IMG/VR virus record: IMGVR_UViG_3300036832_000786
Coordinates: 1-64,000 of that record
DNA: 64,000 bases
Source of the DNA: a virus
Reading direction: 5' to 3' (one strand)
Position 1 is the stretch's first letter, and each line of letters begins with the position of its first letter. The notes beneath the pieces are model-generated. The model saw only the letters and a list, made by a program, of their open reading frames with translations, was not told the origin of the DNA and did not search any database. Of the stretch, positions 61,255 through 63,558 are shown one piece after another. A program made the position numbers and the translations under genes.

Positions 61255-61785
61255 ATGAAGAGTGGCGGGGGCAAGGAGAAGGGCGCGCGCAATGAGCGCC
61301 GCTTGAGCCGCGAGCTATCGTTACTGATTTCCAATGGTGAGCGCGACGACTTGCTTTGGAGAAGTGCGATGAGCGGGGGTACCGCCACCGCCGGTAAGCG
61401 CATGGGCGCTACCAGAGGTGCACAGGCCGGTGACTTAAGTTCGATCGACGGCACTAGTCACTGGCTGGTGCGCGATTGGTATATCGAGGCCAAACACTAC
61501 CGCGATCTTCAGATACTGCGTGGCTTGCTGGTGAACACCGGCAGGCTGCATCGGTTCTGGTTGAAGACGGTGAAGGAGGCGAGTCACTACGGTAAGCGCC
61601 CGATGTTGATTGCCAAACAGAACCGGTTACCGGAATTGTTGATTGTCACTAAAGGTCAGCGGCTGAGCACGATTATCCGGTCACCGGTTATCACCCTGCC
61701 AAACTGGAACGCGGATGTCTACCTGTTTGCCGGGGTGGAACTGACACCCGTTGTGCACAAGCATCGGGTGATGTTGGAGTGTTAA
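61255..61785 (+). CDS. Holliday junction resolvase-like PD-(D/E)xK nuclease
   Basis: KGARNER, RSAMSGG, GDL, IEAK, PMLIAKQNR. Confidence 0.75.
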   Translation: MKSGGGKEKGARNERRLSRELSLLISNGERDDLLWRSAMSGGTATAGKRMGATRGAQAGDLSSIDGTSHWLVRDWYIEAKHYRDLQILRGLLVNTGRLHRFWLKTVKEASHYGKRPMLIAKQNRLPELLIVTKGQRLSTIIRSPVITLPNWNADVYLFAGVELTPVVHKHRVMLEC

Positions 61786-61972
61786 ACCAGCACCAATGAA
61801 TGAAACAATCGACTAGAGTGAACCACCTACTGAGATAGACATAAATGTTCTGGGTGAACCAAGGCAAAGGATTAGACACATACGCGAAGAGTGAACCCTA
61901 GACCATGATTTGAAACAGCCGCTGGGAGTGAGCCAACTGACACGAAGGGAAGCAAAAGGAGGGAGTGACTTG
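61783..61972 (+). repeat. TIGR-like array segment 6 (5 units)
   Basis: Edge repeats at 61783 (partial), 61816, 61852, 61889, 61926, 61963. Confidence 0.8.
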
Positions 61973-61974
61973 CG

Positions 61975-62247
61975 ATGGCGGGCAAGGGTAGACCCTCGAA
62001 CTGGACGCAGGGGCAGGTGACACTGTTGCAGGCTTGCGCGCAGTATGGCTACACCATGCCGTACACTGCTAAGTTACTCAGTATGACGGTACCGGCGGTG
62101 GGGATGAAGGCGCACAGGTTAGGCATCAAGTTCCACGGCAAAGCCGGCGCACCGCAGGGTAACATCAACCGTAGACTATACTTGCTGCGCCAGGAGATAG
62201 AGGATACTCTAGCGCGTGACCAAGCCAAGTACGGTTTAGTCGGGTAG
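61975..62247 (+). CDS. GcrA-like HTH protein
   Basis: NWTQGQVTLL...T..AVGMKAHRLG resembles the GcrA N-terminal WT...NAVIGKVHRLGL. Confidence 0.6.
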   Translation: MAGKGRPSNWTQGQVTLLQACAQYGYTMPYTAKLLSMTVPAVGMKAHRLGIKFHGKAGAPQGNINRRLYLLRQEIEDTLARDQAKYGLVG

Positions 62248-62534
62248 TCATACAGGGAAATAGACACAAAATCGGAGAACGAGCCAAGCCTGTAGACAGA
62301 CACAAACAAACGGAACGAGTCAACCCGCTAGAAGAGACACAAACGAGTTGAACGAGTCAGGTGCGCAGTAGAGAAACAAATAAGCGAACGAGCCAGTATT
62401 GCTGATAGACACAAAAACAGGGAGCGAGCCATCTGGCTGGGTAGATGCAGTAACAATGAGTGAACCAAATCTCGGACAGACACAATCGAGTTGAGCGAGT
62501 CATAAAACGGGAGTAGAATCAACAGCATAGAACG
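62242..62534 (+). repeat. TIGR-like array segment 7 (8 units)
   Basis: Edge repeats at 62242 (partial), 62277, 62313, 62350, 62386, 62422, 62458, 62493, 62530 (partial). Confidence 0.9.
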
Positions 62535-62537
62535 GGG

Positions 62538-62565
62538 TTGCCAGACCGGTTCCCGGCTCTATAAT
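62538..62565 (+). promoter_or_regulatory. Sigma70-type promoter upstream of arrays 8 and 9
   Basis: TTGCCA-16 nt-TATAAT. Confidence 0.6.
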
Positions 62566-62761
62566 AGGTCACGCGGCAACGCGCGGTGTTAAAGGGGGTA
62601 AGTACCTAATGGCGGCGCGCCGAGTACCTGCCGCGCTTGTATCTTTCGGAACAAATGGCGGTACATCGCAACCGACAAGCTGTGGTGTACTTGTTCCCCA
62701 CAGTGGGATATGGGCGCACCGCATGCAGCCGTGGTCACCGTAAGGGCAGGCGGGGTGACAC

Positions 62762-62909
62762 AGTCGGATGATATGGCAGAAACAGTAAACGAGAGCGAGT
62801 CACGATATATGACAGACACAATGTATCGGAACGAGCCAACGGCTTAACAGACGCAAACACGGTGAGTGAACCAGATTCTATGACAGACACATACTCTATG
62901 GGTGACCTA
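62762..62909 (+). repeat. TIGR-like array segment 8 (4 units)
   Basis: Edge repeats at 62793, 62829, 62864, 62900; loops at 62775, 62811, 62846, 62882. Confidence 0.85.
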
Positions 62910-63103
62910 TGACACGCCGTATCATCCGGCTCTATGTTTCGGAAGGTCACTACACCAGCGCCGTTTACGCGCGATGCGACGACGACACCATTTGGAAACT
63001 GAGTCACTACAGTGACGCCCCGCATTATCGCTGGCAGAAGATTCCACCGATCCCACAGGACGAAGAACCAACGGATATTGACAGACACAAGGACCGGGAG
63101 TGA
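62909..63103 (+). CDS. Small hypothetical protein embedded between arrays 8 and 9
   Basis: YARCDDDTIW...WQKIPPIPQ; C-terminus encoded by an array unit. Confidence 0.6.
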   Translation: MTRRIIRLYVSEGHYTSAVYARCDDDTIWKLSHYSDAPHYRWQKIPPIPQDEEPTDIDRHKDRE

Positions 63104-63370
63104 CCCATCCATCCGGACAGACACACTGATCGCAGAGTGAACCACTCCTGTTGATTAGACACGCATCGCCAGAGTGAGCCAACCCGCAGACAATGATGCC
63201 GGCTCGAACCCTCAGTGCCGATAGACGCAGACTACCAGTGTGACCCATCTTCGCAGATAGACACAAAATAGCAGAGTGAACCAAGTTGCCGGACAGACAC
63301 AAGGACGTAGACGTGAACCATTCATTAAGACTAGACACAATGGATAGGAGTGTCACCGGAGAGTGACCCA
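63062..63370 (+). repeat. TIGR-like array segment 9 (~8 units, one with a shortened loop)
   Basis: Edge repeats at 63062, 63098, 63135, 63172, 63202, 63238, 63274, 63310, 63348/63361. Confidence 0.85.
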
Positions 63371-63558
63371 TGATCGAGATACAGAGGGACGGTAAGTTCC
63401 GGGTACGCCTAAGTCACGATGAGCGGATCGAAGTGACCAATATTGACACCAGGGAACTGGCTGAACAGATCGACAAAGCCCTTCACGAAGCCTACCATCG
63501 TGGTACGTTGTCACCGACAATGCGACCGCCGCGACGGCGTGGTGATGATGACGGTTAG
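63370..63558 (+). CDS. Small hypothetical protein
   Basis: ATG fused to the last edge repeat GAGTGACCCA-TG. Confidence 0.5.
   Translation: MIEIQRDGKFRVRLSHDERIEVTNIDTRELAEQIDKALHEAYHRGTLSPTMRPPRRRGDDDG

Follow-up and report, generated by a model that had tools for sequence, protein, structure and literature searches.

Dual-repeat TIGR arrays fused to stop codons and start regions of interleaved genes in a phage genome

Organization of the arrays and interleaved genes

The stretch of 64,000 nucleotides (nt) analyzed here, hereafter the window, represents bases 1-64000 of the virus record IMGVR_UViG_3300036832_000786 (IMG/VR), a complete phage genome of 112,650 bp (112.6 kb) with direct terminal repeats. 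The genome encodes a single Tas protein and carries dual-repeat TIGR arrays at many gene junctions, where truncated repeats at the array ends coincide with the stop codon of the upstream gene and the region preceding the start codon of the downstream gene. A position-weight-matrix scan of the whole genome revealed ~85 TIGR units in ~20 segments across ~15 gene junctions; Tandem Repeats Finder picked up just two arrays. The tandem units are 35-38 nt in length (typically 36 nt), each consisting of an edge repeat GARYGARYCA, 8-9 variable bases (spacer A), a loop repeat GAYAGAMACAA and another 6-7 variable bases (spacer B). The consensus edge repeat, GAGTGAACCA, carries a TGA at positions 4-6 and has a UGA...CCA box. 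The loop repeat, AGACACA, does not show it; in TasR arrays, both repeats have UG...CCA box motifs.

Three segments are located on the minus strand at 16.6-18.8 kb, within a block of minus-strand genes. The others are found among plus-strand genes and share their strand, at 56.6-63.4 kb within the window and at 66.1-76.0 kb outside it. Every segment, including the minus-strand trio, is thus co-oriented with its neighboring genes. As the segments form just two or three clusters, the number of independent observations is small. The array at 18393-18777 is the only one adjoining tas, and ~85% of the units are 37-57 kb away from this sole tas gene, at ~12 further gene junctions. The arrays and associated genes of the window are as follows.

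17357-17553, minus strand: array of 5 units, ending in AAGGAGTGAcgc-ATG at the start of gene 16790-17356
17516-18391, minus strand: methyltransferase-like gene (phrog_15480, E 2e-10), its last 12 codons provided by the first unit of the next array
18393-18777, minus strand: Tas-proximal array of ~10 units, beginning at the Tas stop codon (TAA-GAGCCA) and ending 1 base before the ATG at 18391
18778-19926, minus strand: sole Tas gene, 382 amino acids (aa) from a TTG start; nuclease-less, Nop / IS110-C-like, TasA-like
56660-56773, plus strand: array of 3 units, flanked by the stop codon of a small gene (56467-56661) and the GTG of an SbcD-like gene at 56774
60808-61020, plus strand: array of ~6 units after an SbcC-like gene, unfused to the stop codon here and fused in relative G001
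61231-61785, plus strand: PDDEXK endonuclease gene, its TAA stop codon directly followed by an ACCA half edge
61783-61974, plus strand: array of 5 units filling the whole gap with 0 nt to spare; last spacer plus half edge, AGGAGGGAGTGA
61975-62247, plus strand: 90-aa regulator-like gene, with an orthologue in the same array slot of G001
62245-62523, plus strand: array of 8 units, with TAG-TCA at its start and a truncated edge, GAACG, at its end
62538-62770, plus strand: non-array island, comprising a promoter-like site (62538-62565) and, downstream, ~200 nt of conserved sequence with compensatory changes
62775-62908, plus strand: array of 4 units, ending in GGGTGAcct-ATG
62909-63103, plus strand: 64-aa gene (phrog_16915, E 1e-4), its last 9 codons within a unit and its stop codon the TGA of the edge GAGTGACCCA
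63080-63369, plus strand: array of ~8 units, ending in GAGTGAccc-ATG
63370-63558, plus strand: 62-aa gene downstream of the last array of the window, also present in the near-identical strain G008

The methyltransferase-like gene is flanked by both Tas-proximal arrays, and its start codon lies 1 base after a loop repeat altered to contain AAGGA.

Profile search using 22 Tas homologues matched TaTasR (PDB 9mty, E 2e-17) and SpTasH (E 5e-12), and more weakly the IS110-like transposases IS621 and ISCro4. The protein encoded at 18778-19926 is the only Tas match in the whole genome, and the Pfam Nop model has no match anywhere in the genome. Judging from the start points of the alignments, the phage Tas is without the RuvC part of the IS110 enzymes. 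A C-terminal motif, P-x-P-Y-x6-H-x-H, is kept across the Tas family, and its Tyr-His spacing equals that of Y289/H296 in SpTasH, a match by spacing, without an alignment to SpTasH. In SpTasH these are the residues that cut pre-tigRNA (PMC13421893).

For comparison we used eight related contigs with the same repeat family, of which two are near-identical strains and six share 70-88% DNA identity; pooled junction counts are based on seven non-redundant genomes. A megablast search against deposited phages gave no match. Moreover, no Rfam family was found in the window, nor in the island at 62500-62800, and no tRNA was found within the window.

Array starts coincide with stop codons

The arrays start with ACCA, GCCA or TCA after a stop codon and end with RAGTGA(C), so that the edges are truncated on both sides. 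The initial annotation had listed nine junctions of this kind in the window. Re-reading of the sequence found each of them as written, and the rule extends to arrays beyond the window and in the relatives. At the upstream side, a stop codon is joined to a 3' half edge in TAA-GAGCCA (18778, minus strand), TAA-GAGTCA (56659), TAA-ACCA (61783) and TAG-TCA (62245). The stop codon occupies edge positions 4-6, either as the repeat's own TGA (GAG TGA|ACCA, giving a C-terminal Glu) or as a TAA or TAG at the same place. At 16 of the 22 gene-to-array junctions, 11-14 nt separate the stop codon from the first loop repeat (binomial p 2e-11); counted by gene family, the same holds for 9 of 12 (p 4e-7). These p-values are optimistic because orthologous junctions are not independent.

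At two genes the overlap extends into the coding sequence. The C-termini of the genes at 17516-18391 and 62909-63103 are encoded by guide units that are read without a frame break, and they translate as first annotated, ending in ...NESSYGDRNTE and EEPTDIDRHKDRE, respectively, each followed by the stop codon. A longer overlap is seen in two relatives (L049, which is G002 reversed, and L053, which is G005 reversed), where an open reading frame (ORF) of 103 aa has two to three guide units within it and an edge TGA as its stop codon. A third relative (L050:7862-8013) retains just the first ~50 codons of this ORF, directly followed by array units.

Array ends coincide with start regions

At the downstream side, a 5' half edge is joined to a start codon in AAGGAGTGAcgc-ATG (17356, minus strand), GAGGAACGAA-GTG (56774), GGAGGGAGTGActtgcg-ATG (61975), GGGTGAcct-ATG (62909) and GAGTGAccc-ATG (63370). 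Among the seven genomes, ~20 of 30 arrays finish with a loop repeat, 6-7 nt, RAGTGA (usually then C), 0-6 nt and a start codon. In the study genome, 7/10 array-adjacent genes have RAGYGA no more than 16 nt upstream of their start codon, compared to 6/136 other genes (p 8e-7). The space between genes is also filled closely: 8 of the 13 array-bearing gaps contain 0-1 nt of non-array sequence, and the median gap elsewhere is 3 nt. Chance as the source of the junction pattern was rejected by the stop-phase and start-motif tests.

The half edge (G)GAGTGA(C) resembles an ordinary ribosome-binding region at ordinary spacing, since many array-free genes carry GGAGGTGAC, GGAGTGAC or similar sequences immediately upstream of their ATG. 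In addition, a Shine-Dalgarno 4-mer is present in the last spacer B plus half edge of 16/25 terminal units, compared to 42/179 internal units (p 8e-5), and therefore the last unit appears to be shaped by translation. From these sequence features we infer that ribosomes bind at the half edge.

The start codons of the best-sampled genes following arrays are reliable, as three such genes, at 74.7-76.0 kb, have N-termini that are conserved across five genomes. Moreover, the Pfam Metallophos (phosphoesterase) match of the SbcD-like protein starts at residue 1 when read from the start at 56774, and ratios of nonsynonymous to synonymous substitution rates (dN/dS) of 0.1-0.5 indicate purifying selection on the interleaved small genes.

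A GTGA within 14 nt upstream of the start codon is also seen in 22/136 array-free genes, often as GGAGGTGAC. It may reflect a wider ribosome-binding context, be left over from units that were lost or have given rise to the edge repeat.

Probable transcription and processing of the arrays

A consensus scan found neither promoter-like nor terminator-like sites in the gaps 61786-61974, 63104-63369 and 72098-72207, which are composed of units only, and no terminator-like site after the arrays in the window. Most arrays are thus probably transcribed within polycistronic mRNAs, and since the array-filled gaps hold no promoter or terminator, the guides would be cut out of these mRNAs. Dual-repeat Tas proteins themselves cut pre-tigRNA in the edge repeat (PMC13421893; bioRxiv 10.64898/2026.09.09.750476), processing requires full edges in published work, and mature guides span from mid-edge to mid-edge, in arrays that begin and end with truncated edges (PMC12045711). 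Cutting of the phage mRNA is therefore expected, given that the arrays fill co-oriented gaps. The terminal half edges end after edge position 5 or 6; together with the inheritance pattern described below, this points to cleavage somewhere between edge positions 5 and 7. Within this interval, a cut separating positions 5 and 6 would disrupt a TGA stop codon, and one separating positions 6 and 7 would keep it as the final three bases.

Proceeding from the observed architecture with its statistics and conservation, and from the turnover of units and genes, we propose that the phage carries TIGR mini-arrays embedded in operons, with translation signals overprinted on their end repeats, and that the guides are cut from polycistronic mRNA, an interpretation we favor with some reserve. 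The guides and flanking messages would share one polycistronic transcript, which Tas would cut at every full edge, thereby separating the flanking cistrons. The first cut would coincide with the upstream gene's stop codon or come immediately after it, and the last unit would stay as a 5' leader of ~36 nt on the downstream mRNA. The last edge, shortened after RAGTGA and 0-6 nt before the start codon, would serve as the ribosome-binding site. The same mid-edge point would also be the site of recombination of units, and sometimes of genes, during evolution. The initial annotation had suggested that guide processing cuts the mRNA into gene-sized pieces as a regulatory second function. Tas-driven cutting of the mRNA is plausible, fitting both the published biochemistry and the layout of the arrays, and it may also have a regulatory role.

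Several observations weigh against this interpretation. The arrays at 60808, 62523 and 66119 are unfused on one side, and some genes downstream of arrays have an AGGAGG of their own. A strong promoter-like site (TTGCCA-16-TATAAT, 11/12 matches) is present at 62538-62565 between two arrays; a second non-array island of ~90 nt, at 75430-75517 of the genome, also lies between arrays, is conserved in five genomes and may be an internal promoter. Therefore, not every array needs read-through from the upstream gene. In addition, a GC-rich terminator-like hairpin with a T-run (66060-66118) directly precedes the largest array, at 66119. To these add the simple gene caller of our own that delivered the gene calls, the dependence among orthologous junctions and the assignment of the Tyr-His pair by spacing.

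The stretch of ~200 nt following the promoter-like site at 62538-62565 is conserved in G001 with 10 compensatory base-pair changes and no convincing ORF, and the region 62538-62770 may thus be a structured RNA or leader. The equivalents of the island at 75430-75517 are found at L051:7364-7455 and L050:9376-9480, with the sequence ATGTGCGCGTTTTGTTACGG ... TGTGGCGTATGGT; the unit just 5' of it has an unusual loop, ATTGGACACAAA, which is conserved too. The hairpin at 66060-66118 is overlapped by a promoter-like hexamer pair, and a small Pro/Asn/Asp-rich ORF missed by the gene caller follows the largest array at 66930-67125.

Turnover of units and genes among related phages

Between the genes encoding 722-aa and 137-aa proteins, six genomes keep the same backbone despite differing spacers: an array, a gene of 63-84 aa, an array, a gene of 61-67 aa, an array, an island and an array. 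Within this frame the units are mobile. Their order is permuted (u3, u4, u5 in the study genome versus u3, u5, u4 in G004), some are duplicated, and homologous units are found in different sub-arrays among the relatives. One junction is empty in two lineages and holds a single unit in three others, each with a different spacer pair. Even strains with 98-99% identity (66709-66860 of the genome versus L062:3405-3625) differ by the insertion or deletion of one 37-nt unit in addition to one replaced unit. At 66709-66860, a unit of the study genome is composed of one unit's spacer A and the following unit's spacer B, and it looks like a loop-loop recombinant, as this is the product expected from recombination between loop repeats.

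The inherited module spans from mid-edge to mid-edge: edge positions 1-4 go with the spacer before them and positions 7-10 with the spacer after them. Positions 1-4 track the preceding spacer B, with 12-24% mismatch compared to a background of 23-50%, and positions 7-9 track the next spacer A, with 0-11% mismatch compared to backgrounds of 56%, 35% and 4% at positions 7, 8 and 9, respectively; the counts are small, 17 and 9 pairs of units from seven genomes (e.g. 74456-74565 of the genome versus L051:6321-6430). This agrees well with the proposal of the initial annotation that the repeats act as recombination points, as far as units are concerned.

The exchange of gene cassettes, the other part of that proposal, finds moderate support. 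Extra genes encoding 103, 152, 168 and 194 aa occupy mid-edge slots of the array regions. In G001, the 64-aa gene and its two downstream units are found at a different genome position, and a tRNA-His gene (L047:9623-9697, minus strand) lies exactly between AAGTGA plus 6 nt and an ACCA half edge; this slot is of the type used by protein genes. By our own count, genes were gained or lost between the study genome and G001 at 5/8 array junctions compared to 3/22 others (p 0.016). However, three gene-content differences fall outside arrays, the core interleaved genes keep synteny, and the support for recombination at the gene level is weaker because the arrays may simply sit in plastic regions.

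Beyond these relatives, 78 further viral loci with distant Tas homologues were collected, most of them with periodic arrays; in several, numerous distinct arrays lie within 13 kb of sequence. Visual inspection showed fused junctions in other repeat families among them, including GAGTGAggaacc-ATG in L076, TAG-TCG in L089 and TAG-CCG in L093, and these junctions are not universal.

Searching the genome and its relatives for self-targets, defined as spacer A plus the reverse complement of spacer B, yielded 19 matches compared to 11-18 for re-paired spacers, indicating no enrichment. The unit at 18530-18565 (minus strand), with spacers CCCCGGCG and TACGGGC, has one exact composite match of 15 nt within a gene at 86286-86300, which is also present in the relative G004; it is a weak lead, given no overall enrichment of self-matches.

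Alternative explanations

The junction architecture could in principle reflect a regulatory switch, in which Tas bound on the last unit, with its ribosome-binding site, and a cut at the first edge, at the stop codon, set the translation or stability of ~15 genes. The last unit has all bases of a mature guide together with the ribosome-binding site, which would therefore be covered by a bound Tas dimer (PMC12045711); the cut point at edge positions 5-7 falls within the stop codon or immediately behind it; the terminal units show higher conservation among the relatives than internal ones, and the layout is conserved through the clade. Nevertheless, the conservation of the terminal units is explicable by a ribosome-binding role alone, or by their having a full repeat on one side only, and as published work requires full edges for processing, the truncated last edge is possibly inert. 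We consider such a switch unlikely. If it exists, accumulating Tas would shift gene expression, and one RNA-guided DNA binder would time phage genes via its guide precursors.

Alternatively, the edge repeats might exist as short recombination sites that swap genes, tRNAs and guide units between phages, comparable to boundary repeats in other mosaic phages. The permuted and duplicated units, the edge halves inherited with the adjacent spacer and the unit changes between 98%-identical strains fit such an exchange, as do the four extra genes and the tRNA-His in mid-edge slots, the relocated 64-aa gene with its two units and the variable gene content at array junctions (5/8 versus 3/22). However, the core interleaved genes hold their position in six genomes, three gene-content differences lie outside arrays, and the arrays may just gather in regions that are already plastic. 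Moreover, a repeat of 6-10 nt is a weak recombination substrate, any insertion beside a gene puts the breakpoint at the end of that gene, and no dedicated recombinase was found, in an analysis that made no search aimed at integrases. Cassette exchange as the explanation of the layout thus seems quite improbable to us. The promoter-like site between two arrays and the inter-array island conserved in five genomes would rather fit sub-arrays that are independent transcription units, each with its own promoter and end, so that their closeness to stop and start codons merely reflects tight packing. This explanation is very hard to reconcile with the three gaps that consist of units alone, with no promoter-like or terminator-like site found. 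Altogether, we prefer guides cut from polycistronic mRNAs by way of operon-embedded mini-arrays.

Comparison with known systems

The phage arrays resemble the dual-repeat TIGR-Tas systems of Faure et al. (2025, PMC12045711) in their units of two repeats and two spacers, the spacers being ~9 nt there, and in the partnership with a Nop-domain Tas protein. In the literature, arrays have been described beside tas, sometimes between tasParB and tasA (PMC12045711), and inside tas (bioRxiv 10.64898/2026.09.09.750476). The described arrays beside tas typically end in a terminator, whereas those of the phage are mostly distal and without terminators, and their truncated edges fall on stop codons and presumed ribosome-binding sites. 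The phage units that are readable as protein in frame are similar to the intragenic tigRNAs of Xu et al. (2026, bioRxiv 10.64898/2026.09.09.750476), who suggested a link between guide maturation and translation. However, their units are located within the tas gene, mostly in stem-loop systems, whereas those of the phage form the C-termini of unrelated genes and border many genes. The TIGR-Tas literature that we searched contains no description of arrays spread over a genome, embedded in operons and overprinted with stop codons and ribosome-binding sites.

TIGR-Tas was first described in 2025, and this phage clade bears on two questions, the expression of guides and the growth of arrays. If the guide precursor is the mRNA molecule itself, as the layout suggests, the link between guide maturation and gene expression would become directly testable. 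The inherited module spans the same mid-edge-to-mid-edge stretch as the mature guide and is shuffled, duplicated and replaced even between strains of 98% identity, providing, to our knowledge, the first comparative picture of TIGR array evolution. For annotation, searches restricted to the vicinity of tas would miss most of a phage's guides.

Beyond TIGR-Tas, the proposed maturation has parallels in other systems. Archaeal box C/D sRNAs are reportedly encoded by genes that overlap or are co-transcribed with neighboring ORFs, as Tripp and colleagues are said to have described in 2017. Like the phage guides, they would be Nop-family-bound guides without promoters of their own, freed from mRNA-containing transcripts; they differ in being single genes that guide RNA methylation, and they are not known to reuse repeats systematically as stop codons or ribosome-binding sites. 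In the tRNA punctuation of mitochondria, small structured RNAs lie between cistrons and their excision frees the mRNAs. The RNAs and enzymes differ from those of the phage, in which excision is proposed, and in G001 one array slot is occupied by a tRNA-His. Gene shuffling in phages is also mediated by repeated boundary elements, such as promoter-stem-loop cassettes in T4-type phages; these are short, conserved sequences located where genes meet, and variable small genes lie between them. Those sequences are promoters or hairpins rather than guide RNAs, whereas the phage arrays described here combine strong evidence for the shuffling of guide units with moderate evidence for the exchange of genes.

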